A DNA stretch of 62,659 nucleotides, counting the filler, from Diploschistes diacapsis (Eukaryota): NCBI GenBank assembly GCA_023645945.1. It is 11 parts of 11 records of this genome, joined end to end, with 100 filler letters (N's around TTAATTAATTAA, not from the genome) between each part and the next. Parts side by side here need not be neighbours in the genome. Positions count along the whole stretch, not along the records: positions 26,877 to 28,589 come from JALAIB010002697.1; 10 more parts are not named here. One strand, given 5' to 3'. Below are positions 4,496 through 48,149 of the stretch, one piece after another. Position numbers and translations under genes: made by a program. The notes beneath the pieces were generated by a model. That model ran no database searches, was not told the DNA's origin, and saw only the letters and a list, made by a program, of their open reading frames with translations. Position 1 is the first letter of the stretch. Each line of letters starts with the position of its first letter.

Positions 4496-5081
4496 GCTGT
4501 TACTGTGGACGAGCGACTGCTGCCTTGGCGCCTTGGTGAGCTTCAGGGGAGCTTTCTGGCGCTCATGGGTGGCGTAGAACGTGTCGAGAGTAAAGCGTTA
4601 GAAATAGAGAACGGCAAAAAGTTGAAATACAAATTGAAAGCCTTGGATCAACCATCACGAACGGTGAGAAAGTTGAAGGTGAGCATCCTCGTATACAACC
4701 ATATCAAATGACGTTCCTAACTGGAATTCTGTGACATGCATGTGCCACAAGCAACGCGGCAAATACGCCAAGCACCATGGTCGGCGAAATTTTGAATTTT
4801 CTCCGGCAGAAGCTGGGGATAATTACTAGCGTCATTCTGTCAAGTCTACAACAATCATGGTTCTCATGAATGTTTGAGAGCTTGGAGTACAAAAAATAAG
4901 TGATTATGCTGAAGCCGAGTTCTGAGATACTACAAACTCTGTTTTTGAAGGTCTCGATGTAGTCAGCTTCTCTATGTTAGCCATTCAGGCAACAATCGCT
5001 TGGACTTTGAGACTGGCCTTGCCTGTGGGCTTGCCTGTGGGCAGATGAGGGACGTTGCTGAGAAGCGATGGAAAGGACGCA

Positions 5082-8000
5082 ATGAAGGAAGACTTAGTGG
5101 CACGAGGTCTAAGTTATGGCTCCTTCAACTGGTACCTTGCGCCCTAGGATCTCACTAGCCGGTATCGTAATACTCACATGCTGTAGGCCTTTCGTGGTTG
5201 AGCTTCTCGCCTTTGCACTTGTGTAAGGCTAAATACTTCGCGGATCGTATCTTGGTCTTGCTAATTGGCTGGCATAGGGCAATTGCATTCATTTTCTACT
5301 TCAATAGAGCCCTAGCTTTCCTCGTCTCAATAGCCGTCCGAACATATACTTGGTACTACTTCCGAGCACACATCGAAATTCAAGCAATACAGATATCTCC
5401 GCTCGCGGGACGGATCTTCCTGAAAGGCGTTCGTTATCAAGGTCAAAATGAGACGATAAGCGTAAACAATGGGCATATTACCTGGAAATACTGGTTGCGT
5501 CACGTGCGCCGGGTCGACGCAGGCTCTAAGCAGCCTTCTCGAAACCTAGATGGCTCTAGCAATGCTTCTTTGCCGACTGATCACGACGGAGACGAAGACA
5601 ATGTCGGAGACTTGAACGAGAGGGCCTTCACCTCGAAGAACGAGGATTTTTCGCCTCGAATTACTGTGGATCTTCGCGGCTTGGAATGGTTTGTGTACAA
5701 CCGCAGCCCAGTATATGATGGGGTTTTGGCTGCAATACTCAAGTCTTCCGACGAAAAGAGTGGAAAGGGTGGGGGTGCCAGCTTTGCTCACGGTCATAGC
5801 CACGTGAGCTCCACATCAAGTCAGTCTACTCCCCAGGAGCGTCTAGCAAGCAAGAAAGATGCTCCTCCATCCTCGTTTGTTGGGAATGCAGAAACTCAGA
5901 AAGAACATGATAGTGGTGCTTTTTCACCATCGGGCTCTGCTACGGCTCAAAAAGTCACGTCGGATGGCACCGAATATGCTGGTCTTTCTAGCTTTATGAG
6001 GCTTCTGCCAATTGGCATACAGTGCAAAAAAGGTGCAATGGTGATGGGTAATGAACATACGCGATGTGTCTTGGTGGTTAAGTTTGATTATGCCCACGGA
6101 TTTATAGACGCGCGAAGTTCAGGGCCTCTGGACTTGTACAAGCAGAGCTTTGACTTTGAGCTTGAAAAGTTTGTCGGAAGCTTTCGAGTTAACCAGGACT
6201 ACGGAGAAAGCATATTATCGGCCGGATCACGTCTAGATCCACTCCGTACTGCTTCTGAATCCGAGATTCTGCGAACTTTGAGTCAGGAAAACACCACGAA
6301 GCATGCTTTGCACAAATTATCAAAGCTAATTCCTCAGAAGAAAAGTTCAGCTCCTTCTCCGATAAATGAGAAAGGTGTCTTCGATAATAGTGCTGCGAGT
6401 CCTTCTCTAGGTTTCCCATCCCACAAGTGGCTTGGCTTGTCTCGCTATCTCGACGAAGATGAGGACGAGCTCGTTGAACAAGAGCGCTCGAAGTCAGTGG
6501 AGTATGCTCAAGTCACTACAATCATTGATTGTCCAAAACTGGGAATGAGCTTTTTCTACGATGTTCCTGGCAAGGTCTACAACAATTCTCACCCTGAACC
6601 CCTTACTCAACCGAACAACGGTTCACAGAATATCAATGGCGGTAAACCTCCAGATTGGGGCCTGAATATTACAATTGGTGGAGGCTTAATCAATTACGGC
6701 CCATGGGCAGATCGACAACGAGCAGATTTGCAGGCAGTTTTCTTTCCCCAAGCATATGCGTTGACAAGCGCTGCCAAACCTCTCAAACCAGGACAATTGC
6801 GGCAAAGTACCCAATTCAAAATCGATATAGTTATTGATGAAGCTGTTGTTCTCCGTATTCACACCAGGGAAGAATCCAAAGACTGGAAATGGAAAGGGCA
6901 TTTTCCAAGAACTGCGGAGACACATGGCGGCAAATTTGGGGGAAATCAGAAGCAAAATAAGCATGAGAAGCAGGATTCAAATGTGGATGTTCGGCCCGCC
7001 GGATGGCTGGATCTCACTGCGGCAGCAAATAGTTACGTCTCCTATTCCATGGATATGTTTGCTGGCTCCTCGGGCTTCGAAAATAAACTGAGTCTTGATA
7101 TCCCTTCCTTAAACTTGTCCACTAGTGTAAATCATAGCTTGTTGCTTCGTTCTAGGAATCTTACAATAAGCTGTGATTTAGCTACACCTTTGCAGTGGAA
7201 CGCTCAGCGCAAGTGGATTTTCGATCTCAACTGGGAAGCTCTGGAGCTCTTCCTGCTACGGGATCACGCTTTTCTTCTCACGGACTTGATAACCGACTGG
7301 ACCACAGGGCCTCCCGCGGAATACCCTACGTTCATACCATTCCTATACGGCATCAAGCTCCGATTTCCAGCGTTCAAGATTTACCTGAACGTCAATGATT
7401 CAAACATCATAGACTCTCCTGCTGCGCTCAACGCAAACGCTTTTATGGTTCTGGGAGGCGAACTCCTGAACGCCGAACTCTCTATTCCCTTAACAAACTT
7501 TCGACCCTTGCACAACGAGATCAGCTTTTCCGCAAACGTTTCAAAACTTTATATGGAGCTGCTTACGCCTCCTTGGAACACGCTGAGTACTTTACTGAAA
7601 AGCAAGGTGATGGCCAGACTTGACGCGCTTTCCGCCACGGGATCTTACACCTATTTCACATCAACGTCGCCCTCTCAAACTGAAACATTGATAATGGACC
7701 TCCATGGAACGGCACTGACTGTGCAGCTCTTTGGATTCCTTATCCGTTATTTCATTTCGTTCCAAAAGAACTATTTCGGTGAGGACATGCATTTTCAAAC
7801 CCTGGAAGAGTATCAGCAGAGGCTCGCTCTTCCCAGCGTCGATCAGTCTGTACAACAGAACAGTCGTCATGTCAAAGCATCTAACGATTTAGATGTCATT
7901 CTAACAATCAGGGCCGACGAAGACTGCATTGTTCTTCCTTGCGGACTCTATTCAGCAGAGACTAACGTTAATATCGCCATCTCCTCGGTTCTAATAGATC

Positions 8001-11000
8001 TGCGCTTCACCAACTATTACATGGACTTGGAGATATGTGCGGCCCCTCTAGCCTTCACGCGTGGCTTAGCAGAACCTGTGACAGTACTTGCGGAATCATT
8101 GGTGTCAAATACCCAGATATTCATTGATGGGCTGTCAATATCGGGACATCGCCTGTTCGGACTTCCGCCTACTGAGCCTACCTACGTTTGCAACTGGGAT
8201 TTGGATGTTGGTCGTATAGTAGGTGAATGCACGCTCGAGTTCATGAGTGCTGTAGCGAATGCTGGCAGAGTAATCACTTTCCAATTTCGCGATACAGAGA
8301 ATGCGCTACCTAATGTTAAGCCCACCATGATACATGACGTGACTTTTCTGCGACTAGGACTAGATTCAATGAGATTATGGATGCACGTGCAAAACTCGGC
8401 GGTCCTGTTGGAAACACACCAAATTGATCTGGATTTCAACGATTGGGCAAAGCAAACTTTCTCGGAAATCGCCCATGCAAAAGCACCGCATATTCTCCTG
8501 TCTCTTGTTGACGCTGTTTCCGCGGTTAGGCAGCGGAGCAAGTCAAAGACACCAGTTTTAACGCATGGTGTCCTGCGAACTTCGGTGGATTTCCGCATGG
8601 CAGGGTCCAAGGCAAATTTCAAAAGAGAAAGAGAGCTGCAGCAAGACCACATTGAATTGCACGACTCTAGAACCAGACGAACACCCTGGCTCCGGTTTCC
8701 GAAAGGGTCGGGCATATCAACGTCAAGACAAGAACCTCATCTTAGGCCGCGACCACCAGCTATGGCTGTTCCGCCTATTCCCGAGCCCTTGCAAAGCTAC
8801 AGCCACGATACTAATTCATCGACGTTCTCGCAAGAAGAATCTGGGCACCCTTTCCTTAGTAGACACCATTCTTTCTTATATGCTGGATCAAATTCCAATA
8901 CAACTTCTGAACCTATGTTTGCACCTTCGCCTTCTAAGAGCGAGCCGATAGCCGGAAGACCGAGATTCGTTGTAGTAAACCGAGATTCGGCTGAAGCCTC
9001 GCAAAGTACGCGGAGGACAACCCCTCCGCAGTCGAGTCTAGCATTTTCCAGTCCATTCGACCGTCCGTACTTTCCCTTACAATCTACTGTGCCAGATATT
9101 AGCGGTCTACCGCTCGATCTCCTTCCACTAAACAATGGCGACGACATCGACCATCACACAGTCTCCGACACTCTGGGCGAAGATGGATGGGAAGCACCTG
9201 AAGACGACACTGCTCGTACAAACCTGTTCCTTTCTTTTGGCCCTGGAGTGCAGGCATATTGCAGTTCAGAAGCTGTCGCAACTATCAACGATATCATCTC
9301 TTGTCTACAGCCTCGTAATCCAGAACAGATTTTGGACGACATCCAGATGCTGTCGGTGTCAAGCGTTCTAAGCGAGATATCAAAACAGAAGTCCATTTCC
9401 ACCAGTCTGCAATTACATCTGAGCGTACCTGCAATAGCTGCAAGACTTATCGACTCAACCCAAGGCGTTCGAAATCCTACGCATTGCCAAGCATACGAGC
9501 TAAGTGCATTCGATTTACGAACAATTGCTCGATTTGAGGATGGAACACAGCAACGTCAGTCAGCGGGCGTAGAAAAATCAGTTTTAGGGCATGGATTGTT
9601 GCGAAGAGCCCGACTAACTGTCAAAGGACAGGCTAAAGGCACTTTGGACCAACAAACCCGGTTGGATGTCATCTTCAATAACTTGACTGTCTGGCTGGCT
9701 CGGGGAATCCTTATTTCAAGTCAATTACGGATTAAGGGAGTAGAAATCATAAGCCTGAATCGGAGGGTTGAATACTTGTCAGCTCTGCTCAGTGGTGCGA
9801 CCGAACTGTTGCAAGACTTCATTAATATATTCGCACAAACAATTACTTCACAAAAAAGGAGATTACAAATATTAGTACGCAGCCTCGCCACTGAACATGC
9901 AGTTTCAGCAGGCCCTATGTTCCTAACGACTGTGTCTTACGTTCTGCGGGCGGCTTCGAGCCATCTTCGTAACACTGATACCTGGAAAATCATCTCCCGC
10001 CTTAGATTCATATACATGAGCTTGTCCACGGAAGACCAAATTAGGTTGAAGTCGCAATGGCATGAGTCATTCCGTCCGTCCCTCGAAAATGAAGTAGAGA
10101 TGATTTCGATTTCTCTTAACAGATGGCGCGCCTGGGATTTGGTGCAGGTAAAAACGAGTGCTTTCATGCAAGAAATATACGGGGCAGATTTGTCAAAGAC
10201 AACATCTGCGTTTGCTGCGTCGTCTTTCTCTCTCGGGCTCAACCTTGGCTCTTTTAAAGCCATAATCGACCCTGGTCCGGAGCAGAACGAGATTGAAGTC
10301 AAACAGCTGTTTATCTCGGTGGATTCGTCACTTCGTCATATAAAGGCACAAGATTCAAGGGACCATAGCAAACGTCTCTCCACAATTGCGTTGTACTGTG
10401 ACTCGACTTCCATACATCTCAATTGGGAACTCTGTGAGATCGTTGTGAATATCTTGGATTTATTATACGCTCCCAAGCCTGGGGGTGACAGTTCTGTGGC
10501 TGCTCCCCAGGATATGATTGTAGAGCAACAAGATACTGGACTTCCTCAAGTTCTAAATAGCTTGCAATTCGTGCTCGCGCTTGAAAATATTGATTTGGGG
10601 TTCAAAAGCATTAATATAATGGTCAACTCGCTGAGTCAGTCCGTCAAAGCCTCTCTACTGGTAGATCAAGTCTCGGCCACAGAAACCACCATGAACGCTG
10701 TTCTTAGCGCACAGCTAATAGCTACACAAGTTTCGAGCCACCTACGATCTCTAGCCCTTGTCCAGATAGTATATCCCTCCGTGAACGGCTTCTTGATTTT
10801 ACGAGATGGCTCTCAACAGCAACTGAGAACATGGAAGGGTGGTGCCTTCTGTACTAGAATCGGTCTAGAAGTGCATGAAGATGCTCTTGGCCTGCTTGGC
10901 GTAGCTGATATGCTGCTAAGGGATGAGCTATCCTACCTAAAGCAGAAGAAGGCATCAATTCCAGCTAAGCTTGTGGCACAATCAGAAACACACCAGCCTA

Positions 11001-14000
11001 CACAAATCCACAAATCCGTTGCAAATGATTTACACGTCACTCTTCTCCTTGAAGAGTATAGCATCAGCACTGTATTACTGTCCTCTTTGAGATATGTTGT
11101 TCGTGGAAACGTCGCAAGAAGCATAGTCAGATCGCTTGCTGCTCCAAAGAAAGGTATCTTGGCTGATTTCGACATCAAACAGCATTACCATTCTCTCGAG
11201 AACAATAGCAATCTGTCTAGGGAAGAGGTTTCCGGGTTCATTTTGCCTCCCATGAACGGCTATATAAATTTAAGTATAGGTCACAACAGACCTTCTGTGA
11301 CGATCTCGATGGCCCTGGAGAGAATATCAGTGAAAGCTTTGGCGCTGTACTACATCACAAGTACGTTATCTCGACAGGAAATCTCTCGTTTTCGTCAAGA
11401 TGTAGTTCGAGACTCTGAGATCGTCAAAACAAACTACAAGAATCTGCTGAGGCGCTCTTCCGGCATTGTGAAGCCATCTCAGGCAGACACTGCACCTGCG
11501 TTGAATTATAAAGTCAATCTTATCGCAAATGGGCTCGTCATCACGGCTACCACCGGCAAGTCATCCAAGCAAGCAGCCCGATTATCGCTTGAGCTTGAGT
11601 CTATATCCCTCCGAATGATCAATTATGAACAAAACAAGTGGCACAAACTTCTGTTCCCAGAGATTAGCGCTAACTTTAAGACAATAAAGATACTTCTCGA
11701 GCGCTACGACGGCAAGGTTGGGCGTTCATGTGGCGATTTCACCATAACAACTTCCTTTGTTGGGACCTCGAAGCCTAATGATGAAGGAAGGACTGTCAGG
11801 TCTTTTGAAGCTTCAATTCATGGTCCGGAGATCAATCTCTTCGCTGATACTGCGCCCATCGTGGTGGATATCCTCGGCTATATCCAACAAAGATTCAAAA
11901 GCTTCAGTATATCAGAAGAATTCCATACATTCCGGGCACGTCGACATCGCTCCAAATCTCAAGCAAGACTTCATTTGTCCAGTCCTTCCACTGAGAGTGA
12001 GGACTTAGAGCTTACCGCAATTTTGTTCAATTCGATGTATGCACTAGAAATCAAGGATATTCAAGTAAGCTGGCGGGTCGGTGACCTGATGCCTATCTCT
12101 CCGGGTCATGAACTCGAAGATCTCATCTTCTCAATCGAGCGAATCCATTTATCTACTAGAAAAACTAGCGCCGCTCGGCTTCTGATTGGCAATTTGCAAC
12201 TTCAGATGGTTCCAACTTCCCAATCGAGCCGAATGCGCTCAAAAAATTCTGCATTGCTGCCAGAGGTTGTGTTCAATGCAGCCTATCTGTCTACCTCAAA
12301 AGATAGACGTCTAGCTTTCCAGGCAGTAGGCAAGTCGGTGGATCTCCGACTAACGCCCAACTTCGCTGCTCCAGCAAGCGACCTGCAGCGTTCAATCGGA
12401 CATGCTACGGAAGATCTGCGGAAAGTCATTGCAGGGTGGAACGCCTCATTTCTCCAAGACGAGCAGCAGAGCAAAAAGCTATTTGGTAATAAAAGACTGT
12501 CTTCTGTTCTGATAGATGCCGACTTTGCAGGAGCTGTGGTACATCTTCAAGGAAGTGAGAACGTGAAGACACCCACGAGTGCATACTCTCCCCAGCAGAC
12601 ATTTCTACCATTCTCGCCCGGCGATATGTCTTTACAGAGTCCAACAGACTCGTCGCATAGCGTCGTTCTGCGTACGCCAGGAATTGCCTTCAAAATCGAA
12701 TATCAAGATCTTGAAGATCCTGAACCCTCGCTGAACGCGGAGGTCAAGGTTGACGCATCATCCAATACACTACAGCCTACAATCGTGCCGTTAGTTCTAG
12801 CACTTACCTCCAGCATTCAAGAGATTGTTCAAAGGAAAGGTGAAACTCCTCAAAGCGCAGTTACGAGGATAAATCCCACTAAGCCATTAGGCGAAGATTC
12901 TATTCGGGCAACGGATCCCGCTGCAATATTAGGCAATTGCAGACTCAATCTAGGGCTCAGAATCTGCAAGCAAAGATTTGGCCTGACCTGCCAACCAATA
13001 GCCAAAGTGGCAGCTGCGGCAGAGATCGAGGATATCTACATCACTATCAATACTGTTCAAAGCGATGACCAGAATCGGTTCTTTGCTCTCTCAGCAAAGA
13101 TAACCCGATTACAAGCCTCGGTGCAACATGCCTACTCTCAGGAGTCAACAGGGAGCTTCGTCGCGGAGGTCATCGAGCTATCATTGATGAACAGCCGACA
13201 TATCAGCGATCTTGAGGGAATGTCTGCCATCCTAAATCTTGGTCCGATGAAAGTTGTCGTAAATGCTAGGCAATTGCATGATTTCTTCTTGTTTCGTGAG
13301 CTTTGGCTACCCAGAGACATATTCCAACAGAACGCCCGACCCCCACCATCAACACTCGAAGCTCACCCTATCATGGTACAACGCTATCAACAGGTGGCGG
13401 CAGCGAGTCCTTTCCCCTGGAATGCGACAATATCGATTGCTGAACTTAACGTTGAGCTAGATCTAGGTTCCTCCCTGGGCAAGGGTTCGTTACAAACCAA
13501 GAAATTGTGGACCTCGTCAAGAAAACTTTCGAAATGGGAACAAACTCTTTGTTTGGGCTTCGATTCAGTCACTGTTGAGTCAGTCGGGAGACTCAGTTGC
13601 TCTATTGGGTTACAAAATATGCGTCTTCGAACGTCCATCAAGTGGCAGGAAACGGACGTTATGAGCAAGCAGACACCTCTCATTCAAGCTTCGATCGGCT
13701 TTCAAGACATGCACCTCAAGGCGGCATTTGAATATCAAACCATTCTTGTTGCAACCTTCTCAGCTCTTGACTTCATCATGTATAATGTTCGTGATGGCAG
13801 ATATAACTTTGCCGACAGACTAGTTTGCATGGTCGAGGGCGACCAAGTCCAAGTATACTGCACAACTCAAACGTCAGCGCAAGTCGTAGCACTTTCTCAG
13901 GCATTTCAGCGCCTGGTTCAGGAGAAGAAGCAGGCATACGAAAACTCCTTGAAGGACATTCGAAGATTCTATCGCACCGAGGATGCAAAGGGTCCATTAC

Positions 14001-14851
14001 CCACATCCAGCTCAACTGGTGTGGTTATGGCTGCTGAACAAGGGCCCGACAAGACACCGCTGCAACTGCAAACCAATGTTGTCGTTGCGTTAAAATACAT
14101 TAACGTTGGAGCCTATCCGCGGTCGTTTGCAGATAGTAATATTTTCAAATTGAACGCCCTAGATGCTTCTGCTAGGTTTTCTGTTCTAGTCAAGGATCAG
14201 AAGCTACAAAGCTCGCTAGGAATGAGCCTTGGCCAAGTTAGAGTCGCTCTTTCGCCGATCAACCGCCAAGCTGGGTCAAATGCATTCGAAGATATCTCCG
14301 TGGACGATGTTATGCAGTACTCTTCAGGGTCGCGGGGCGGCACGATTCTGAAAGTCCCTCGTGTAGTGGCGGTCATGCAAACCTGGCAAGCATTCGAATC
14401 CACACAGATTGAGTACGTCTTCAAAAGTACCTTTGAGGGCAAGGTCGAAGTCGGCTGGAACATCAACCGTATCAACGTTATCAGAAGCATGTGGAACAGT
14501 CACTCTCGCGCTTTGGCCGCTCGGCTTGGGAAAGCATTGCCCCAATCAGCTGTTCAAATCACTGGTGTACCGACTGGCGAGGAAGATAAAGGAGATGTGA
14601 AGATCAAGAAAGAAAAAATTACTGCTGTTGTGAATGTACCTCTGTCCAAGTATAGTTATGCTGCAAGAGAGCCGCCTGTGATCGAGACGCCCCAGTTGCG
14701 AGACATGGGCGAAGCAACGCCGCCGCTCGAGTGGATAGGTTTACAAAGGGAGAGGCTCCCCAATATTACGCATCAAATCATTATAGTACCGCTACTGGAG
14801 GTTGCAAAGGAGGTCGAGGATGCCTATGGCAGGATTCTCGGTGCTTCGTGA
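5082..14851 (+). CDS. CSF1: Csf1/BLTP1 bridge-like lipid transfer protein (~3,200 aa)
   Basis: Two short 5' introns give MKEDLVARGLSYGSFNWPFVVELLAFALVAIAFIFYFNR (TM anchor), then GLEWFVYNRSPVYD, YGPWADRQR, GHRLFGLPPTEPTYVCNWD and C-terminal PQLRDMGEATPPLEWIGL. Confidence 0.93.
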
Positions 14852-23146: not shown

Positions 23147-23246
23147 NNNNNNNNNNNNNNNNNNNNNNNNNNNNNNNNNNNNNNNNNNNNTTAATTAATT
23201 AANNNNNNNNNNNNNNNNNNNNNNNNNNNNNNNNNNNNNNNNNNNN
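23147..23246. other. Artificial contig linker (also 24962-25061, 26777-26876, 28590-28689, 30403-30502, 32216-32315, 55413-55512, 57225-57324, 59037-59136, 60849-60948)
   Basis: Identical N44-TTAATTAATTAA-N44 each time; the core has stops in all six frames. Confidence 0.98.
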
Positions 23247-24961: not shown

Positions 24962-25061
24962 NNNNNNNNNNNNNNNNNNNNNNNNNNNNNNNNNNNNNNN
25001 NNNNNTTAATTAATTAANNNNNNNNNNNNNNNNNNNNNNNNNNNNNNNNNNNNNNNNNNNN

Positions 25062-25330
25062 TTAATAAATTTATAATAATATTTCGGTGAATTTATTATA
25101 ATATAATATCCGTAGAAATATTCGTGTTTTAAAATTTTTAGTCGTAATGTTCGTGTTCGTGTTTTTATTATAATGTAGTGTCCGTGGAAGTGTTCGTGTT
25201 TAAAAAATTTTAATCGTAGTGTCCGTGTCCGTGCTTTTACTGCAGTGTAGTGTCCGTGGAAGTGTCCGTGCCGAGAAAATTTTCGCGGTAGTGTCCGTGT
25301 AAGTGACCGTGGCCCGCAACGGCCAGCCTA
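25062..25330 (-). mobile_element. Terminus of a DNA transposon (hAT-like) with a 72-bp subterminal tandem array
   Basis: TCCGT(G/A)GAA at 25109, 25181 and 25253 (72-bp period); many GTGTCCGTG motifs; minus-strand start TAGGCTGGCC at 25330. The superfamily call is inference. Confidence 0.5.
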
Positions 25331-25367
25331 TCTATAAGACTGACATTTATATTATTTACTTGTGCTG

Positions 25368-25642
25368 ACGTGTTTGACGGGGAAGTGGGCCACCCCAGAA
25401 GTGGGCCACTTCTTATTACAACTTTCATCTTTTTTTTCGATTTTTTTAATAATGGCCACGTCGTATAATACCGATTTAATTTTATTAAAATTTAATATTA
25501 ACCATTGTATTAATGTCTTAAATTTTTAATAATATATTAACGTTCGAGAAGCTATCCGCGTATTTAAAGTTCCTCGTTTAATTATTATGCGTCGATTTAT
25601 TGAAGTATAATTACGTTTTAATAATCACGGATCGAGTTAAAT
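25368..25642 (+). mobile_element. Fot1/pogo left TIR and transposase start, interrupted by an LTR element
   Basis: ACGTGTTTGACGGGGAAGTGGGCCACC; colinear with 59239-59514 until similarity stops at TGTAAAGG (25643). Confidence 0.85.
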
Positions 25643-26321
25643 TGTAAAGGATGAAATGCAGTAGTGTGATAGGAATGGTTATAGTATTTATGAACTAATC
25701 TCTAGAGAAGAAAAGAGGAGATCCTTTTATAAAAATTCTTCTTATATGGACCTACGGCCTTAACGCGGCGTTAAAATTGAATTTCTCCGCTCGCCCGAAA
25801 AACTATTATAATTATTTATTATAATCATTTTTTTCTTTTTTAATTCTAAATCTCTAGAACCGTTATTTACGTTTATCTAAAAACTTCCGTAAAGATCCCG
25901 ATATACTTTCCGTTAACCCCGCGAAAGGATAACGGACACGTATTCGCCGTAAAACGGAAATCTATCGGTATAATTCCGGTTAATTAATATACGAACCGAT
26001 ATCGATTTCTTAACGCGTAAAACGCGGATATATAAATTACGAATATCTATAAATTAAAATATATAATAATTTTATAAGATAAATATATTAATAATAAATC
26101 CTGTCGTCCCGATATATCTTTATAATCTTTATATTTTTTTAATCTTTCTTTTACTTCTTATCTTTAATTATAATTTAATAACCCTTTAAATAAAAATATA
26201 ATAAAAAACTTTCTAAAAATACCTCTACCTCGGCTAATATACGTATATCCCGCGATTAAATTCCGGAAGATCAACGATTAACGATAATAAAAAACAACCT
26301 AATTCTAATCCTCGATTCTAT
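25643..26321 (-). mobile_element. RIP-degenerated LTR retrotransposon 3' end (LTR ~25643-25823)
   Basis: On the minus strand a purine run AAAAAGAAAAAAAA precedes a ~180-bp segment ending TTTACA at the junction with the Fot1 copy; upstream DNA is AT-rich and stop-riddled. Confidence 0.5.
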
Positions 26322-26776
26322 TGTTACGATCCAAGTAACTAGGTGGTAGTCCACTTGGCACTTCACAGCTGATCGGGCATCTTCCCAACCACTCCTTGTA
26401 TATAGTACAATCATAATGACACTGATCACGTGATAAGTAGAAAACCTTAAAAGCTATTTTACCCTCTATAGGTAGAACGGGAGAACGATAGTTTTATTTA
26501 TTTACTAATCTATTCTATTAAGAAATAATTAACTATATAAAAACACGCCATGGCTCCTATAAATTAAGATATATTTACTTTTATAAACATCTTTAGCGAT
26601 TACTCGAGATCAATTTATATTCGTTAATTTCTATTAATAGAAAGTAATCTTTCTATAGATCAGTATAGATTTACAATCGATCTATTTCTTTTTTTTTTAT
26701 ATTTTTCTTCTAATAAAGATCAAATTTACTTTAATTAATACCTCGTGTCTATTTTATAGAGATAAAGATTATAATA
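26322..26776. repeat. Probable LTR of another family
   Basis: Abrupt start TGTTACGAT with higher GC; contig ends in ATTATAATA, compatible with a RIPed ATCGTAACA inverted terminus. Confidence 0.45.
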
Positions 26777-26876
26777 NNNNNNNNNNNNNNNNNNNNNNNN
26801 NNNNNNNNNNNNNNNNNNNNTTAATTAATTAANNNNNNNNNNNNNNNNNNNNNNNNNNNNNNNNNNNNNNNNNNNN

Positions 26877-27520
26877 GATTACATAATTGGGACACGTATT
26901 AACAATAGTCATGTACAGTTAGTGGACCACAATTGTGTAAATCCAGAAAATTTGAAGTTTGTTACAGAGAGTGTTGAGTTTCCACAAACTATTTACGGGA
27001 GACATGAAATTCAACGACCCAGTCAACATATTCTGAAATTTTTTTTGATTACATAATTGGGACACGTATTCACAATAGTCATGTACAGTTAGTGGACCAC
27101 AATTGTGTTAAATCCAGAAAATTTGAAGTTTGTTACAGAGAGTGTTGAGTTTCCACAAACTATTTGCGGGAGACATGAAATTCAACGAACCAGTCAACAT
27201 ATTCTGAAAAATTTTTTGATTACATAATTGGGACACGTATCTCCAATACTCATGTACAGTTAATGGACCACAGTTCTGTCAAATCCAGAAAAATTGATGT
27301 TTGTCACGGAGAGTGCTGAGTTCCGACACTTTGTTTACGGGAGACATGAATTTCAACGATCCAGTCAACATATTCTCAAAAAGTTTGTGATTACATAATT
27401 GGGATACGTATCTCCGATACTCATGAACAGTAAGTGGACCACAATTGTGTCAAACCCAGACAGTATGAAGTTGGTTACAGAGAATGCTGAATTCCCACAC
27501 GTTATACGGGATCAACATGG
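26877..27520. repeat. 171-bp tandem array (~3.8 units, open at the contig start)
   Basis: GATTACATAATTGGGA starts at 26877, 27047, 27218 and 27389 (periods 170/171/171); unit 2 has stops in all six frames. Confidence 0.97.
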
Positions 27521-27988
27521 TTCGAAAGTCTCTTTGGTGCTGACAAGCAAGTGCACATACTATTGTTGTCAACAACCTTGCTGCCCAAAACTTTTCGACC
27601 AGTGGATCGTGGAAAGTTTCCGGCAAGCAAATTGCACAAAAATCGCATCATCATGATTCACGCTCTCAGCCTTCTACACAGCTTGAGTCGCTTGATGAGT
27701 CTGTTTTCAGCAACTTGCAAGGCCAGTTGGTGTCAGAATGAAGCCCAAAGACTTCATTACAACCCATGCGTGACTTTAATGAGTTGACACAACCAGGTCA
27801 AAGGTTGAGTACCATCACCCCCATGCCCTTGCATGGTTGATTAGTTTGATGATCAACATCATGCCCTGATCTTCATTAAGAGCCTGCCCGCTCTATTCCG
27901 GTACCGGATTGAGATGGATTGGGCATTTGTTGCACATAAAGTGATTAGGACATAAGGCTATCTTTTTTTAGAGTACACAAGGAGGGGG

Positions 27989-28589
27989 ATGCCAGTCGTA
28001 TGTGAAACGTGTTTGACACAATTCCCATCCAACTACGAACTTGCTCGGCATCGGAATCGGAAAACACCTTGCAAGGCTAAAGACGTGGAGTGTCCGGAAT
28101 GCAAGCACAAGTTTACGACACCAAGAGCTCTGAAAGCTCATATCAAAGATGGGCGTTGCAAAGGCAAGACCGACGCAATGTTGGCGGAAAATCTAGCAGA
28201 AGAAAATTTTAAATTGAAGAACCAGCTGGAGCAGCAATCCCAACTAATGAATATGGCTAACCAAGCTACAGCAACAGCTGCCTATCAAACAATCAACAAC
28301 ATACAGAACATCGAAACTCAGAAAGTGGTCGTCAATGTCCAAAGTCTGCAAGTGACTAACAGCATTGGGGAGGAAAATTTGCGTCATTTGTCCGGATTAT
28401 CTGCCCTTGAGCTTCGCCAAAAGCTTCTTGTTCGTCATGATCCGGAAGCACTTGCTCTTTGGTGCGAGCTTACACGGGCAGATGAAGCACACCCAGAGAA
28501 CCACAATGCTCTTTTGCAAAGTGAAGACAGTAGCCACATGACGTGCTGTCGTGGGGGGACCTGGGTAGTCGAGGAGAAAGATAAGATTC
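27989..28589 (+). CDS. Intronless zinc-finger/coiled-coil protein of giant-virus (NCLDV, MIGE-like) type; truncated
   Basis: CETC-x12-H..RKTPC and CPEC-x12-H...RC fingers; coiled coil; N/I-rich linker TINNIQNI; NSIGEENL; HPENHN; W-x4-KD. Confidence 0.75.
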
Positions 28590-28689
28590 NNNNNNNNNNN
28601 NNNNNNNNNNNNNNNNNNNNNNNNNNNNNNNNNTTAATTAATTAANNNNNNNNNNNNNNNNNNNNNNNNNNNNNNNNNNNNNNNNNNNN

Positions 28690-29969
28690 ATACAACACGT
28701 AGCGCCAATACTTCGTAACTTCGACCTTAACATAAACTACCAATAATTCGGAAATGATATACTTAATATATCTAAAATATTAATATGATTCTATCTACGT
28801 CGGTAATATGCTTTCTTATAAGCCTATTAATAGAACTAAACAAGAATAATAAAGAGCTCGCCTTCTAAATATTTAAAGAAAAAGCAAATAGTTCACAAAT
28901 AAAACCGATTTTAAAAGCAGCGATCCTAACATTATTAATATCGCTATTAATCATAGGCTCTAAAATAACAGTATCTCCAAATAAACGATTAATAGGCACG
29001 AAACATAGATACGAAACGGATATATTAAAACTCGATTAAAAGCTAAAATCCGGAAACGATTGAAAAAACGTGATAATAAGCTCTATTACGGACTCTATTA
29101 GAAGCGTAATAACAATCGAAAAAAAACTAGAAAAATCAGGGCTAAACATAGGTAAAGAAGTGATCAATACATACCGCTTATAAGACCTACTACGACGTTA
29201 AAAACGGATAATAGGCTCCCTTTCTACCGCCTACACGAGCTTATCTATAAACGTATCGCCTTTAATCAAAAACATCGTTAAAAACGTGTTAAAAGCTTAC
29301 TCGGACGTTTTAAAGATATGCTTTAACATTTTAATCAAGAAAGTATAAGAAGTAAGACACCAATAACAACGAGAAGCAAAAACGGACGACGAACGAGAAA
29401 CAAGAACGAACGGCGATAATAACTCGCTAATAAAATCTATAACATGAATTAAAGGAATAAGGGTTAAAAGATAAAGAAATAAGATATAAAAATATCACAA
29501 ACAAGATAAAGATATTATAATAAAATTAATATCTAAATAAAAACATTATTAATTTAATAAATATTTAATCTACAAATAACCAGCGTCGATATTAGAATTT
29601 ATTTATATTATAATTAACTACTAACGAACCTTAGAATATACATACAAAAACGAGAATAAGCTCGATCTATATTAAGGATCGAAATAATAACGATATAAAT
29701 CGAATTAATCATCTAATCTATTTTAATAGGCAAAGAAAGGACCATAAAGGTGGCTCTGAGGGACCAGAGCAAGAAAAAAAGAGATAATTGTAAGGCCAAG
29801 CAAGAAGCATGCCAATAGTCGGACAAGCGGCACTCAGGGTCTTGGCTTGCGGGTACTTGAAAGGGGATTTTGCCCTTCTTACTCTCTCCTCTTCTTTAGT
29901 AATTAGTCCTAGCATGAATATGCCCTGCGTACAGCCATCTTGCCACATTGTCGTATTCCACCCTTTACA
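28690..29969 (+). mobile_element. RIPed LTR-retrotransposon 3' region with PPT and 181-bp LTR (29789-29969)
   Basis: AAGAAAAAAAGAGA purine tract then TGTAAGG...CCTTTACA GC-richer segment; upstream internal region too decayed to assign. Confidence 0.55.
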
Positions 29970-30502
29970 AATATTATCCCCTTTTTTCAATTTTATCGAC
30001 CCGACAAACACCGAAAAATAAACATAAATACTAAATAAAAGAAAATCCCAAATCGTGGAACAGCGATATCTTCTTTTTTTTCGAAATAAAAGAAACGTTT
30101 AAACATTATCATTCGTTTTCGGGGTTATCTAGACATACTATTTTATAATTATTGTTTCTTTTTTTACGATTATATTAGAATACTTTTTATCTCTATTAAA
30201 TACGCTCGTTGTGGTAAATCTAATAAGAAGGATTGCATTTATGTTATCTAAAAAATAATTAAACGAATTATCCTTTCGATTAAGGAAGAGATCGATAAAG
30301 ATAAAAAGCTTATTAACGAGGATAATAAATAAAAAGAAAAACTAAAAAAATAATTTCGTGAAATTAAAAATTGTCGTTTTTAATGTAAACGTCGTATTCG
30401 TCNNNNNNNNNNNNNNNNNNNNNNNNNNNNNNNNNNNNNNNNNNNNTTAATTAATTAANNNNNNNNNNNNNNNNNNNNNNNNNNNNNNNNNNNNNNNNNN
30501 NN

Positions 30503-31261
30503 ACCATAAACGACCGATTATTTAATCGAGAATAAGAACGTCGTTTTAATCGAAATAAAATTATTAGACTAAAACTTCGCTACCGTATTAGTTATATAAA
30601 AAATATATAAAATATAAAATATATAAATAACGATACCATAAATCTCGATATTTTAACTAGTAAACCCCGGTTCAATTAAAAGAAAGGAGCTAAAAGATTC
30701 AACGGGGGACCTTCAGCTGAAGGAAAAAAATGTTTCGAATGTGGCAAGATAGGCCACTTCGTTCAAGATTATCGATCTAAAAATAAGATCATCAGGAAAG
30801 ATACCCTAACCGCGACAGATTAATATCTTAACGTAATTATAATTATCTTTATAGAAAACTATCCGACCGACGGATAACCCTAGAAGGAAGTTATAATTAA
30901 CTCGGATACCATAACCTAACAAAACGACACCGACGACTTAACTAATAAAAATATCGAAACCGCGTTTTTGCAAATTATAACATTAATTACGTAAATTTCG
31001 AAAAACAACGATATTCCGAACCTAAATGTAACGGAATACAAAAAATCGACTTAAACATACGATCTAATTCCTAACGCCAGACCAAATATTCAAGAACCTT
31101 TAGGAATTAATTTAAGCGAAGAAGCAGCGTACGCGTTTCGTACTTTAAAAAAAGTTATAAACAAACAAAAGTATCTTCAAAAAAAAGTTCTTATCGTTAA
31201 TAATCGGAAACATCTAAATTACATACTTTTCGACGAATATAAAAACTTCGGATACAATTAC
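30503..31261 (+). mobile_element. Retrotransposon gag remnant with zinc knuckle
   Basis: 30731-30772 reads CFECGKIGHFVQDY = CX2CX4HX4C with the last TGT RIPed to TAT. Confidence 0.75.
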
Positions 31262-32215
31262 TGCTATGTAAATCATCTGTAAAATCAAGTGTGAGAAGTG
31301 TGTAGATTCGTAGCTAATCTGGAGCAAAATCTACTTATATACAGTAGATGCCAAGCGTTATCGTCATAGATGATACCTAGACAGCGAGGTCGGCAATATT
31401 TGCCTTAACAGCAACCTACAAGCAAGCCCAGCAACTACCACAATCTCCTTCTTTTAGTAAAAGCTTATGCCCCCATAAGCATATATCTATCTTATATTTT
31501 TATCAATAGCGATCCCAAAGCATCTTCTTTTATACTTATTTATCTTAGAGAAAAAATCTCCCACAAAGGCTTATTAAAAGTCCTTAAATAACAAAGTAAC
31601 TTTAATTCTTTTAAGAGATTAAAACCTTTATAATCGTCGCCATTTTTATTTACATCCTATTTTTAGTTTTATTTAATCTTTATAAGTTCGTTATAGTTTT
31701 TTTTATAATCGGCGACGAAGTTTTTAATATATCGTAATAATTCTTTCGACGATATTTATATATTTTCGTTAACATCGTATCCCGTCCAATGTATTAAATA
31801 CTTTGTTTTTTATCTTTTACTCTTCTTAAATTTCCTTTTAACTAATAATTTATTTATTTTATAATATCCTTCCTCCAAATCGATTGTTATAGATAGTAAA
31901 AATAAAAATCGGCGGTGATAAAGGTCGCCGACGGGATCTAAAACAGGTTCTAAATATGTTATATTAATAATATCGTGTATTCTATAATATTAAAGGAGTT
32001 TCAGCCTATAAGCGAGCTTATCTACTCGTTTAAAAATCTTGAAAGGATTTTATAAATTATGGCGAAATTTTCTTATTTAAGGCCACGAGTATCTTATATT
32101 TTTTATATAATTATAATATCGCAAAATCTCCTTCGCGTATAAAACAAACCTTATATCTCCGATCGTACGTTTCTTTTATAATAATCTTTATTATAGCTAA
32201 TATATCCTTCGTATC
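31262..32215 (-). mobile_element. Ty3/gypsy chromovirus 3' end (integrase tail, chromodomain, PPT, LTR ~31262-31442)
   Basis: Minus strand: KRVDKLAYRLKL...RIHDII, KYLIHWTGYDVNEN (chromodomain), PPT AAAAGAAGGAGA then TGTGGTAG. Confidence 0.8.
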
Positions 32216-32547
32216 NNNNNNNNNNNNNNNNNNNNNNNNNNNNNNNNNNNNNNNNNNNNTTAATTAATTAANNNNNNNNNNNNNNNNNNNNNNNNNNNNN
32301 NNNNNNNNNNNNNNNGGATTTGGAGTTCTAAACGCGAAATATCACGGCCGAAACAGGGTGCAGTATTGCATGAATTCTATAAAAGTACGTCCCTTCGTTG
32401 AGTTTAGACCGCCAACATACAATCGTTGTTGAAATATGTCGACCAACCATCCTGTTAAAGGAGGTCTTCCATGTGCTCGCCCAAACTCCGCTGCCGGCTA
32501 TGCTACGCTAGTGTTGAAACAGATAGCTGAACAGAAACTAACAAAAC

Positions 32548-43883: not shown

Positions 43884-46778
43884 CTAAGTTCCAGGAGTCG
43901 CCCGGCGCTGCTTCACCTTTCCCCATTCCTTGCCTCCACCTGCTGGTCTCTTCCGACCAGCGACAGCATACACCCGCTTCTCCTTCTTACCATCCGCCGA
44001 ATCGTCCATGTTACTCTGTTCCCCGACCGTTGCAACGATACTGCTAGCCGGAGGATCCACTTCCACCACCTCTGTCCCTTTCTCATAAAGAGAGGCATTC
44101 TCCTCGAATTCACGCTCCCGAGCAGCGACAGCTTCTGGTTCAAGCTGCCTGGCGTGGGCGAGCAGATCGATGGAAGAGTCATCTGACTCTTGGTCACCAC
44201 TCGACTCGTGCCTGGTGGTGTTCGACGAAAATGTATGCAAGAATCTAGACGGAACAAAGCGGCCAACATTCTCAACATCGTGCTGCACGTCTTCCATTTT
44301 ATCGTCGCTATCTCCTTCGCTACCGCTACCGTCATCGGATATGCTCTCCGAAGAGAACGGTAAGAGGGCGTACGAAGGCGGAGGCAAGGCAGATGGTAGT
44401 AGGTCAAGCTTGCGCGTAGACAATATTTTGGTCTCAACAGCAGATTCCTGCAACAGCTGTCGATGTTCGACGCGAACCTTGATCGAAAAGTTATCTCCCG
44501 GTACGACGCCACCGAGTCCGGAAACTTCGAAAGACTTCTCCTCTCCTTCACTAGACGGAGACTTACATGACTTGCCTAGACCCTCTGCGAGGCCCGTAAT
44601 TATGGGGGTACTTGTTGACTTCTCCCAAGAGTTTACAGAGCCTGGGTCCAGTGACTTCGATACCAGGCCATTGACTTCACTCCGGCGTTCCTCGTTGTTC
44701 TTCCCAACGCTACAACCAACAACTCCGTCAAAATCTTTATCGTAAAGTGGACAGTTGTAGGGCGTGTTTTCCTCGTCTTTACTCAAATCAGTGTAAAAGC
44801 GAGCACGGTTGTAGAAAATAATGTGGTCAACCCCCTTTCGGAAATTGGACCGAATCGCGGCATTTATCGCATTCCCATAAGGTGCACCATCTGCATCCAA
44901 GGCACTCGTACTTTGCATTGGCGTAGCGGAAACAGAAGATCCTTCGCCATCGAATGAACGATAGCCATCTTCTCCTACCTCCAGAGAGTGGTAGAAGATT
45001 GGCCTGTACTGGTATGGATCTTCAGACAACGTCTGGTTCAGCAAGAGTGGTCTTTGCCGGTCAAGATTGGATTTGTAGGTGCCGGAATATGGATCCTTCG
45101 ACGTCTGAACGTTGCCACTGATACCTGAATGGACCTCTGTTGAAGGTTTGCTAGGCTTGCTGTGGCCAATATCCTTGCCAACGCCAAGCTCGTAGGGATA
45201 GGATTCGGAACTGTGTTCCGAGCTCTCACCACCGGTATCGATAGTTAACTTGGTGACTTCGTTGCCTCCTTTCCACCTGATGCGGCTTCCATCTGTAGAT
45301 AGTTCAAACGTCGCGCCAATGTCATGGATAGAGTCGCGCACAAAGTCTGGCGTGACATTCAAAGTGTGGAGCTGTGCCATACTTATCAGTAAATTTAGAT
45401 AAATCCATCCCTCATCTCCCTCTGATCTCTTCTCATAGTCCAATTCTGGCGAATCAAAGCCCAAATGTTTGATGTACTGAACGTTCTCTTCGGGGTTCTG
45501 GGCCCGAGAAGGGTCCAGATCCAGAGGCCTTGTGGGTCGTTGAGAGGGCGTTGGGCTACTGCCTGTACTTGTATCTTTGGGGTTCCACTCGTCGGAGCTT
45601 TTCTCGGCGGGGGAGGCCCCTATATGGTTGGAAGTCCGGTTTGCGGTGGGGAAGATTTTGGCTTCGCGGCTGCCTTCGGCTGTCACTTGATGACCGCAAG
45701 CCTCACTCGCCCGTCTGTCGGCGTTGGCTGCAGACTGTGAGATCTCCTGTTGTTGCCTCGATTGACTGTGCGTATTGGAGCTGTCTCTGCTGCCAGTATA
45801 AAGTTGTTCAAGACGCTTGACGACAAGCTGTTTCTTTGCTTGCTCTGTCATCACAGGAGAATGCTTCGGAAGAAGACGCTGTGAGATTGACTGCAGATAC
45901 GAGCGCACATTCTGGTCGTTTGCTTTAGCTTTACCGGGAACAAGACTCGGGTCTGCTTTCTGTAGACGTGATTCGGAGTTGCCACCGAAGGCTGACATGG
46001 AAACGTATGCAGAATCCAGTGGGCGAGAGTTCGACGTCCCAGACGAGGAGGGTTGGTGACGTGGCGTTGGCCTGCGACTAGGAACATGGGATAACCTCTG
46101 GGCAAAGGCAGATGGAACATCCTCTTCCCCCGCATCTCCCATACTTGACGCGAAGTCTTGAAGAGCACGCTCCAACCTTCGCTTCTTGGAAGCGGGCAGA
46201 CCGTGCACTCGAATTTCGAAGAGCTTGTCATTCTGTAATTTCCCACAGTGTAGCTCTTCATATTTCTGCAGCTTCCGCCTCAATCGACGATTTTCGATTG
46301 TGAGATCGTCGATAACGCTTCGAAAGTCTTCATTGCTATTCTCTAGAATGTAGTTTTGTGACGCAAACGAGTCTGCGTGACAGGGGCGACGACCGCCGTT
46401 GGAAGAGGCAGATGGGTGGAACCGATCCCGCGAGGCACTCTCAGAGGACGATTTTTTTTTCAAGAAGAAAGGAGGGTCGTCGTTCCCAATGAATCTTGCG
46501 CTACCTTCTCCAGATACGTTCTTGTTTGAGTCAATGAACCAAGTCCTGGCCGATCCACCATCCTTCGGCAATCTAGACCCATGACAGATTGAAGGGTCTT
46601 CACCATTCGCTGCGATGTTTGAAGCAACGCTGAGGCTATCACTGTCCGCTCTGGCCGATTTCTCCGAGCTGTGCAAAGGCGATTTCCTGATGCAGACGGA
46701 TTCGGCACGCGATACCCTCTTCGGGTGTATCTGATTCCGGGCTTGAGTCGGAAGCTGCGAGCGAGTACCAACGGACAT
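43884..46778 (-). CDS. frq: Circadian clock protein FREQUENCY (964 aa)
   Basis: DFRSVIDDLTIEN coiled coil, KLFEIRVHGLP, KKQLVVKRLEQLYTG, QRPTRPLDLDP, GWIYLNLLISMAQLH, EVSGLGGVVPGDNF. Confidence 0.96.
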   Translation of the reverse strand: MSVGTRSQLPTQARNQIHPKRVSRAESVCIRKSPLHSSEKSARADSDSLSVASNIAANGEDPSICHGSRLPKDGGSARTWFIDSNKNVSGEGSARFIGNDDPPFFLKKKSSSESASRDRFHPSASSNGGRRPCHADSFASQNYILENSNEDFRSVIDDLTIENRRLRRKLQKYEELHCGKLQNDKLFEIRVHGLPASKKRRLERALQDFASSMGDAGEEDVPSAFAQRLSHVPSRRPTPRHQPSSSGTSNSRPLDSAYVSMSAFGGNSESRLQKADPSLVPGKAKANDQNVRSYLQSISQRLLPKHSPVMTEQAKKQLVVKRLEQLYTGSRDSSNTHSQSRQQQEISQSAANADRRASEACGHQVTAEGSREAKIFPTANRTSNHIGASPAEKSSDEWNPKDTSTGSSPTPSQRPTRPLDLDPSRAQNPEENVQYIKHLGFDSPELDYEKRSEGDEGWIYLNLLISMAQLHTLNVTPDFVRDSIHDIGATFELSTDGSRIRWKGGNEVTKLTIDTGGESSEHSSESYPYELGVGKDIGHSKPSKPSTEVHSGISGNVQTSKDPYSGTYKSNLDRQRPLLLNQTLSEDPYQYRPIFYHSLEVGEDGYRSFDGEGSSVSATPMQSTSALDADGAPYGNAINAAIRSNFRKGVDHIIFYNRARFYTDLSKDEENTPYNCPLYDKDFDGVVGCSVGKNNEERRSEVNGLVSKSLDPGSVNSWEKSTSTPIITGLAEGLGKSCKSPSSEGEEKSFEVSGLGGVVPGDNFSIKVRVEHRQLLQESAVETKILSTRKLDLLPSALPPPSYALLPFSSESISDDGSGSEGDSDDKMEDVQHDVENVGRFVPSRFLHTFSSNTTRHESSGDQESDDSSIDLLAHARQLEPEAVAAREREFEENASLYEKGTEVVEVDPPASSIVATVGEQSNMDDSADGKKEKRVYAVAGRKRPAGGGKEWGKVKQRRATPGT

Positions 46779-48149
46779 GACGAGCGTCTAGCAAAGCAGG
46801 TATATTAGAATCATTATGAGTAAGATAGGTGGTGCGTGCTGCTGTTGTGAGGTGGTGTGACTTCTTGCTAAGGGTAGATTTAAACGTGTTGATATGGGAC
46901 TGCGATAATAACAATGTCCCTCTTCGAGTACGCTCGGATCATGAGTATCATGGTCTTTAATGTATTTGCCATGGCATGGAAGCCATGGGGAGGCCCTGTA
47001 ATTGCTCATGCTACCAGAAGGTGTGAGATTAATAGATTAAAGATCCTGTCGATGGATTTTCGATCTGAAGAGTGTTCGCTTGTGGCAAGAATCATTGTTC
47101 CAGGACACCGAGATCGAATAGATGCTATTGGCCAGAATCTTCGGAAACCGCTCCGGAACTCACACGGCTGCTTTTGATATAGCACTGGCCCATATCCATC
47201 CCATCCCCAAAAGAGACGATGACACTGGCACTCACTTATATGATTCTAGATTTGCCTTCGAATCTACCCCAAGATGGAGGTGTTGTGGACTATGAGGGAG
47301 ACCGTCAAAGAGATATGGAACAATAAAGAAGTCGAAGGCCTCTGCCAGAAGATGCCTCGATTAAGCGACTGGATTTCTGTATCCTACAGCTTTAGAGGTG
47401 CGTATCCAGAATCGTCGGCGTGCACCCTGCTCTACACATGGAGCGAACGACATTCAGTAACCATCCCGCCTCCTTGCGTACCTACTCCGACAATACACCT
47501 CTTCCTCTCGTTTTGTCTCGATATCCATGCCATCTCGTCCTAGTTCTTGTAACGGCAGTGGCAGGAGCTAGGCTTAATTGCTGCGTATATGACTGCGCGA
47601 ACTTGTCGCACTCGCCTTGGTTATCTACCAGCCTATCATGCCGGCCAATGCCGTTGGGAGGTTCACATCTCCTAATGGTCCTTCTTGGTTTTCCTAAAGC
47701 GGCCGAGATGTTGCCAGCGATCATTCCCAGTGACTTCATGAAAACAAAGATGGTCTCGAATTTGACGTCGCAGCTCCTACTTCGCTCGATAACTACCTAC
47801 ATTCTCTCCTTCATGCTGCCTGTGGTCAGGAGGGGGACAAAAAAGGGCAACGAGGACGACGATGGGATCGCGATGGCAGTCGCTTCGTAGTTCTACATGA
47901 CCACAATGACGACAAGCGTAGGCTTTATGCGAGCCCTCGAGGTGCTTCAGCTGGCGCAGTAAAAATACAGGTCTGACTAGCTTGACAATCGGAAGAAATG
48001 TTTTATGCCGCGAGCCTGTCGTAAGCTACTTCTAAAACTTGATCTTCGTCTCTCTCTAGATCCTTTAAGCCTCGACAACGAACGTGTATATACGCGAAGA
48101 AGAAGCCAAAGATGACTGTAGCATCCGAAGTGTCGGCATCGCCCCTAGA

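Follow-up and report, generated by a model that had tools for sequence, protein, structure and literature searches.

Whose genome does a gene of giant-virus type belong to when it is met in a fungal assembly, and how did it come to be there? The question is raised by a 62,659-nt stretch of the Diploschistes diacapsis assembly GCA_023645945.1 (hereafter the window), in which one 1713-bp contig carries the beginning of an intronless gene for a zinc-finger protein. A first-pass annotation of the DNA had assigned this gene to a multicopy protein family of Nucleocytoviricota and had offered three sources for it: a co-sequenced giant virus, an endogenous viral region of an associated eukaryote such as the algal partner or, less likely, a viral insertion in the fungus. 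We conclude, with a probability of about 0.72, that the contig holds the 5' part, some 60%, of a gene in the nuclear genome of the photobiont Trebouxia, and that this gene belongs to a family shared with giant viruses and is of viral or selfish-element ancestry.

The window gene and its giant-virus family

The open reading frame (ORF) runs into the N run at 28590 without a stop codon, and the 3' part of the gene lies off the end of the contig (coordinates are collected in Table 1). The corresponding full-length protein (P0002) has 329 amino acids, of which 199 of the 200 covered by the window ORF (P0001) are identical; at position 28407 the window has T (Leu148), where C (Pro) stands in all four aligned runs and in the 329-aa protein, a change at a non-conserved position that could be either a strain difference or an assembly error. 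The zf-C2H2 model of Pfam matched the ORF in two stretches, scoring 33.6 bits (cut-off 25.2) at E 4.2e-8. Across 44 aligned family members, C38, H51 and N171 are invariant, and C5, C8, H21, C28, C35, C57, G127, E129, P169 and W192 are conserved in at least 90%. The first-pass annotation had called the fingers C2H2/C2HC-like; the ligands of both are CCHC. The other strings and parts that it had described in this intronless, two-finger ORF were found, with a modelled long helix as the putative coiled coil, and including the N/I-rich linker, NSIGEENL (residues 123-130), HPENHN (168-173) and W192-x4-K197-D198.

An AlphaFold model of the whole protein, built on the 44-sequence alignment (mean predicted local distance difference test score (pLDDT) 87.6), places a compact core at residues 113-275, in which two helices, the PENHN loop, a beta-hairpin (183-196) and three further helices follow one another, with a modelled 50-residue C-terminal helix after the core. 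In the layout of the family, two N-terminal CCHC fingers are followed by a long helix and an N-rich linker, after which come an alpha/beta core and a C-terminal helix; the signature of the core is G-x-E ... D-x3-P-E-N-H-N ... W. No Pfam model covers the family core, and no nuclease domain was found by Pfam in P0001 or P0002. A core-only model calculated from unaltered viral references and family members reached pLDDT 90.6 and a predicted TM-score (pTM) of 0.83, which gives a widespread, multicopy giant-virus family without a Pfam model of its core a confident predicted fold.

Relatives of the protein are numerous. Among 1.84 billion cluster representatives, 197 were found at E<=1e-3 and 29 at 1e-10, and many of them, at 260-340 aa, match from the fingers through the core. 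That the window ORF is a member of a giant-virus family is seen most directly in IMG/VR, where a degenerate DNA pattern for the strict motif FD-x3-PENHN found at least 127 stretches; 73 of the 126 loci listed lie on contigs named GVMAG, the label of published giant-virus metagenome genomes, and others lie on viral contigs of 100-527 kb. Of the 119 distinct viral ORFs listed that contain the motif, a core-only profile, free of the fingers, matched 113 at a limit of E<=1e-3 and still 108 when the limit was E<=1e-10 (E-values set for a database of a million), with viral scores of up to 90 bits, and a profile made from 11 algal-side sequences alone was passed by 41 of the 119. As a control, the same pattern was run on 596 Gb of prokaryote genomes, where it occurred at 84 places, approximately the number estimated for chance; none of these 84 passed the core profile (best score 17.5 bits), so that the motif alone cannot account for the viral scores. 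BLASTP with P0002 reached 44 of the 119 viral ORFs listed, at 21-27% identity.

Structural comparisons gave the same picture. With the whole-protein model, 31 matches at E<=1e-3 were obtained in BFVD, of which 28 are named giant viruses, one is Virus NIOZ-UU159 and two are unnamed; among them are proteins of ChoanoV1, Yasminevirus, moumouvirus, Tupanvirus, Aureococcus anophagefferens virus, Pyramimonas orientalis virus, CeV-01B and EsV-1. These matches span approximately 210-490 columns with TM-scores of 0.2-0.34, which are low because the parts of the protein are flexibly linked; a core-only fragment matched at a TMt of 0.74 at a root-mean-square deviation (rmsd) of 3.3. In the ESM Atlas, the clusters nearest to residues 110-329 are 90-100% viral (scores 0.88-0.91). 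The core profile, BFVD and the ESM Atlas all bear out the earlier proposal that this layout marks a multicopy family of Nucleocytoviricota, and the HPENHN region, where a lack of such matches would have counted against that proposal, has strong ones in these nucleocytoplasmic large DNA viruses (NCLDV).

The closest known counterparts are giant-virus proteins named 'C2H2-type domain-containing protein' (Mimiviridae sp. ChoanoV1, Borely moumouvirus and others), which share with the algal protein the order of parts and the length class, are significant with the finger-free profile, match over the whole length in structure at E 2e-9 to 1e-4 and, like the algal gene, are multicopy. The algal copies differ from them in forming a separate clade at 21-27% identity, in lacking an AT-driven amino-acid make-up and in lying on algal chromosomal contigs.

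The genes around the viral family members also speak for giant viruses: they include VLTF3, topoisomerase II, a family-B DNA polymerase (PolB), a D5-type primase-helicase, MutS, FEN1, RNase III and an RFC-like clamp loader. At one locus (L107), on a contig of a giant-virus metagenome genome, a D5-type primase-helicase (AEP_C962R and D5_N domains; 1937-4900, plus strand) and a PENHN gene (4942-5751, minus strand) are immediate neighbours and convergent. Among 111 confirmed viral ORFs that start with Met, two fingers are present in 42, one in 24, three or four in nine and none in 36, and where there are two they typically lie near residues 5 and 50. A single viral record of 405 kb has six family places and single GVMAG names have 7-11 loci, some of them overlapping. 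At the DNA level, paralogs of the same viral genome share 66-83% identity. Copies may also be close together, as in two tandem ones approximately 1 kb apart on one viral contig (L013:5422-7376) and three a few kb apart on a 53.9-kb viral contig (L015 and L016); the latter are interleaved with two HNH endonuclease ORFs, one of which also has a SAP domain.

Probable algal origin of the contig and proposed ancestry of the gene

The window is a chain of 11 contigs, two of approximately 23.1 kb and nine of 1711-1715 bp, held together by ten artificial linkers (each N44, TTAATTAATTAA, N44) that are not biological sequence, and being neighbours in it is therefore no evidence for being neighbours in any genome. 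The two large contigs carry a homolog of the clock protein Frequency (FRQ) and a Csf1/BLTP1-type lipid-transfer protein, which mark them as ascomycete and the assembly as fungal. Seven of the nine short contigs are AT-rich (GC 0.30-0.34, TpA/ApT 0.98-1.15) and without long open frames, and look like fungal repeats degraded by repeat-induced point mutation (RIP). The gene-bearing contig, with a GC of 0.425 and a TpA/ApT of 0.59, differs both from the fungal gene-bearing contigs and from the RIP-like ones, in agreement with the earlier description of its ORF as un-RIPed. That a virus or transposon inserted itself into the DNA of the fungal partner, as the fungal nature of the large contigs might suggest, is barely credible given that artificial linkers are all that joins those contigs to this one, that its composition is unlike either fungal class, that its ORF has no RIP-like bias despite the RIP-like repeats in the assembly, and that the same gene is annotated in Trebouxia; no evidence supporting such an insertion was found.

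The link to the alga comes from protein clusters. The 90%-identity cluster of P0002 (28 members) includes KAL3134493.1 of Trebouxia sp. C0009, encoded on a contig of 1,066,206 bp, and a related cluster of nine members includes three from Trebouxia sp. C0010, whose contigs measure 2.5, 2.7 and 3.6 Mb; other members of the same clusters lie on contigs of up to 729 kb. The C0009 and C0010 proteins are 95-98% identical to P0002, which gives proteins this close to the full-length form a chromosomal location in the alga. The gene is multicopy and dispersed in Trebouxia, one genome having three or more diverged copies: where they overlap, the three C0010 proteins have mutual identities of 93-97%, two of them are without the finger region, by either decay or an error of the gene model, and a second subfamily is approximately 85% identical.

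These proteins also bear on the first of the three sources named above, a free or episomal giant virus that infects the photobiont and was sequenced together with the lichen. The family is typical of giant viruses, and a short contig with an intronless gene, present in lichen metagenome runs, is what such a virus might leave. We nevertheless hold this origin to be very improbable, as the 95-98% identical cluster proteins stand on Trebouxia contigs of 1.07-3.6 Mb (others of up to 729 kb), the GC of the ORF, 0.47, exceeds the viral-locus median of 0.30, a 171-bp satellite adjoins the gene, and no IMG/VR contig carries a close relative.

Sequencing runs are consistent with the algal assignment. 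The contig or parts of it are present in runs from 12 studies, among them some labelled lichen metagenome. Contigs of 1.7-2.3 kb in three DNA runs, each of a different study, span the gene and the non-coding DNA upstream of it, starting at 27211, 27243 or 27427; contigs of runs X1, X2 and X13 extend 309-1135 bases beyond 28589. The 171-bp repeat region at the start of the contig was found in the three DNA runs under many short contigs at uneven and higher depth, as expected for a satellite, and one run contig omits 362 bases across it. The repeat resembles an algal satellite that also occurs elsewhere in the same genomes, and it probably caused the break in the assembly. A scan of JGI metagenomes gave finger-level matches only and no close relative. 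From a polyA RNA library, a 2036-nt contig of a relative of approximately 92% identity aligns from 27804 to the end of the window contig with 63 differences and 17 gaps; it has 90 unlike letters ahead of 27804 and shares the last 185 upstream bases (27804-27988), which hints at transcription of a relative.

On the strength of its composition, of the near-identical Trebouxia proteins on Mb-scale contigs and of the coverage in DNA runs, the contig is best read as Trebouxia-type photobiont DNA that strayed into the fungal assembly, bearing one copy of a Trebouxia gene family that is dispersed, intact and probably expressed. Of the first-pass annotation, the judgement that this is not a normal ascomycete gene agrees with both the non-fungal composition and the Trebouxia annotation, and the algal partner is the one of its proposed sources that fits; the co-sequenced virus is disfavoured by GC content and by the 21-27% identity to viral copies, as well as by the scans of viral contigs described below. 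The practical consequence is that the contig should be treated as photobiont DNA and counted neither as a fungal gene nor as a horizontal transfer into the fungus.

Where the algal family came from was considered with a core phylogeny made in FastTree (158 rows, 164 columns, root arbitrary). The seven rows of the Trebouxia cluster form one clade (support 100), which is nested in a clade of 25 rows (98) and further in a group of 56 rows, and the 78 viral rows are without exception on the other side of the split (support 88). Relatives on viral contigs were sought with P0002, P0141 and P0008, with none found, and with P0156 and P0055, which returned one each (L001 and L132), both of the AT-rich viral type; a DNA pattern for the algal-side subfamily matched no viral contig, a result that, with so strict a pattern, is weak evidence for absence. 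The nuclear gene of the green-algal partner would have entered the fungal assembly as a short stray contig. The algal copies probably have as their ancestor a giant virus, or a selfish element moving between such viruses and their hosts, and the transfer was probably not a recent one from any of the sampled viruses.

The tree could also be read in the opposite sense, with a native, vertically inherited green-algal family of transcription factors captured and then amplified by giant viruses. The 56-row Trebouxia-side group is diverse (approximately 20-55% identity), has no labelled viral row and had no member on viral contigs in four scans, and the fraction of K, N and I in Trebouxia-side proteins is 0.13-0.25, against 0.3-0.46 in the viral copies. 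We consider this reading improbable, however, in that Trebouxia is the sole organism name among the 25 clusters examined, viral proteins make up 90-100% of the closest ESM Atlas clusters, and the viral members, by their BFVD names, are spread over lineages as distant as relatives of mimivirus, marseillevirus-like metagenome-assembled genomes (MAGs) and EsV-1; an intronless, multicopy and dispersed gene with some truncated copies would also be unusual for a housekeeping regulator.

Several observations weigh against viral or selfish-element ancestry of the Trebouxia gene, or against parts of the argument for it. Neither the 25-row clade nor the 56-row group contains a labelled viral row, and since the split, at 88, is modestly supported in a tree with an arbitrary root, transfer from host to virus is possible. 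The viral sample was picked by a strict motif and is hence biased, and the algal copies are only 21-27% identical to the sampled viral ones. The organism names rest on four NCBI records, 23 of the 25 clusters examined giving none and a profile search of a 5.8-billion set adding none, and the RNA evidence is one contig from one library in which carry-over of DNA is possible. On the 1713-bp contig two weak inverted repeats are present, with no sign there of a viral region, of target-site duplications or of terminal repeats. For a possible kinship of the core with D5_N (PF08706), a domain of viral primase-helicases taken up in the next section, three results are unfavourable: the window protein has no Pfam match to it, two of 46 family members have sub-threshold ones (15.6-16.2 bits against a cut-off of 22.4) over the hairpin and the next helix, and hhalign against 20 true D5 proteins picked out the same segment of hairpin, Trp and helix at E 0.2 and a probability of 0.3%.

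Virus-type genes are already known in green algae, and the Trebouxia family adds a case. For the lichen photobiont Asterochloris glomerata, an integrated NCLDV genome of 540 kb is reported, some genes of which are transcribed (PMC6652019). The two cases are alike in having virus-type intronless genes in the nuclear genome of a lichen photobiont with signs of transcription, and differ in that one gene family alone was seen in Trebouxia, as dispersed copies on different contigs. The lichen alga Trebouxia would in this way join the hosts that carry genes of giant-virus type, and as intact relatives are present in an alga that can be cultured, the function of the protein is open to testing there.

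Core fold, possible function and mobility

The presence of two conserved fingers suggests that the algal protein binds specific DNA through them, which we regard as probable. For the PENHN core, we give even odds to its being a second module for nucleic-acid binding or for assembly. Its core-only model had no significant match in the PDB, PDB sequence searches with both profiles found zinc fingers only, and a PDB fold search with the whole model found only fingers or single long helices. A prediction of self-association for two copies of the 329-aa protein gave a score of 0.01, which is uninformative either way.

Below the level of significance, the comparisons lean towards one domain, the D5_N collar of the primase-helicases of NCLDV and P4-type phages (vaccinia D5, mpox E5, C962R of African swine fever virus (ASFV)). 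The top row in VIA-align was residues 360-540 of the ASFV PrimPol (Z 5.8, with a noise guide of 7-8; rmsd 4.0 over 132 aligned residues), and three other primase-associated helical domains stood lower in the list. In Foldseek, nine of the ten top-listed PDB rows for the core-only model were vaccinia D5, mpox E5 or AsfvPrimPol (E 0.67-1.4). Weak matches thus agree across methods, yet all scores are below significance, the PENHN loop is without a shown counterpart in D5_N, and no primase or helicase domain is attached to the family proteins. A relationship of the modelled core to D5_N is best called doubtful. Other weak VIA-align rows were EcoRII (Z 3.9), PspGI (Z 3.6) and BEN domains (Z 3.8-4.6). 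A reading of 'ENHN' as part of an HNH/His-Me nuclease was considered and rejected, since neither His nor Asn is conserved in the helix that follows the hairpin and no such fold appears in the lists.

GIY-YIG-type homing endonucleases have an I-TevI-like architecture, with separate DNA-binding modules. In three of 16 longer viral members that were scanned, a T5orf172/MUG113 (GIY-YIG-type) domain precedes the fingers and core, and a Terrestrivirus relative in BFVD is named 'GIY-YIG nuclease'. This nuclease module of some viral relatives, together with copy number and divergence, is the basis for reading finger-plus-core as the half that directs a selfish gene of homing-endonuclease type to its target, a possibility to which we give slightly less than even odds. 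The likeness to such endonucleases lies in the fused nuclease of some viral members and in genes that are multicopy, diverged and dispersed; the difference is that the window protein and most members are without a nuclease domain, and that no homing site, intron or intein was seen. The algal form lacks the nuclease domain and, if it is active at all, would serve as a regulator or work in trans.

A further comparison is with the Major Interspersed Genomic Element (MIGE) of PgV-16T, CeV-01B and related alga-infecting Mimiviridae, which may be related to the family, as the first-pass annotation had proposed, and which is multicopy, as are the viral relatives here. A genome announcement counts 12 copies for PgV and six for CeV-01B (PMC4669402). 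One CeV-01B protein, which may or may not belong to MIGE, is a structure match in BFVD (rank 21, E 9.4e-5). Bacterial homologs are mentioned for MIGE, whereas none with the strict core motif was found here (0 of the 84 prokaryote pattern matches). A MIGE has one zinc-finger ORF with a short conserved non-coding stretch in front of it. In the 405-kb viral record, two copies have approximately 390 bp of upstream DNA in common (L004:6538-6921 and L049:6556-7028), in which no substantial ORF lies, and two further copies in it hold part of this DNA in inverted orientation; it was absent from the other viral MAGs compared. The window gene has 185-490 bp of upstream DNA in common with its relatives, which orthology could equally explain.

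Taken at its widest, the comparison would make the PENHN family a self-propagating, MIGE-like element able to move inside giant-virus genomes as well as into the nuclei of algal hosts, with the Trebouxia copies (intact, 93-99% alike, dispersed and apparently transcribed) representing a recent burst and the core being a divergent D5_N-type domain borrowed from viral replication. We think this composite proposal quite unlikely. If the copies are mobile, they would form a link between the selfish elements of giant viruses and those of their hosts.

Other contigs and feature coordinates

The features of the remaining contigs of the window are given in Table 1 with those of the gene-bearing contig. 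Several of the seven AT-rich contigs share repeats with one another and with positions 1-1130 of the first large contig; those at 57325-59036 and 59137-60848 are 83% identical over 1018 bp.

Table 1. Features of the window, with the nuclease fusions of viral relatives given by viral locus.
Feature	Position	Strand	Basis or remark
Gene-bearing contig, 1713 bp	26877-28589	.	Linker map
171-bp tandem repeat, 3.6 copies, open at contig start	26877-27499	+	Tandem Repeats Finder (TRF): 88% matches, score 929
Non-coding DNA upstream of gene, approximately 490 bp	27500-27988	+	Four short overlapping frames of 50-85 aa only
Codons 1-200 of 329-codon intronless gene	27989-28588	+	ATG start, frame reading
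Zinc finger 1, CCHC (C5, C8, H21, C28)	28001-28072	+	Pfam; at least 90% conserved in 44-sequence alignment
Zinc finger 2, CCHC (C35, C38, H51, C57)	28091-28159	+	Best Pfam stretch residues 34-53
Long helix, residues 62-98, putative coiled coil	28172-28282	+	AlphaFold model
N/I/Q-rich low-confidence linker	28283-28351	+	pLDDT <50 at residues 95-104 and 106-111
Conserved core, first half (rest beyond window)	28352-28588	+	Alignment; core model pLDDT >90
Core motif G127-x-E129	28367-28375	+	
Core motif HPENHN, from H168	28490-28507	+	
Core motif W192	28562-28564	+	
Csf1/BLTP1-type lipid-transfer protein, 3226 aa, stop-free	5171-14848	+	
Frequency (FRQ) clock protein homolog	43887-46787	-	Pfam E 2.8e-113
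Seven AT-rich contigs	25062-26776, 28690-30402, 30503-32215, 55513-57224, 57325-59036, 59137-60848, 60949-62659		
Artificial linkers	23147-23246, 24962-25061, 26777-26876, 28590-28689, 30403-30502, 32216-32315, 55413-55512, 57225-57324, 59037-59136, 60849-60948		
T5orf172/MUG113 fusions in viral relatives	L041:2601-4004, L076:5692-7305, L079:3037-4722	-	

The short contig at 23247-24961 has a GC of 0.574, unlike the fungal contigs and the gene-bearing contig, and carries on its minus strand a stop-free frame of 412 aa that has no Pfam match and for which the ESM Atlas gave a weak, Ascomycota-looking lead.

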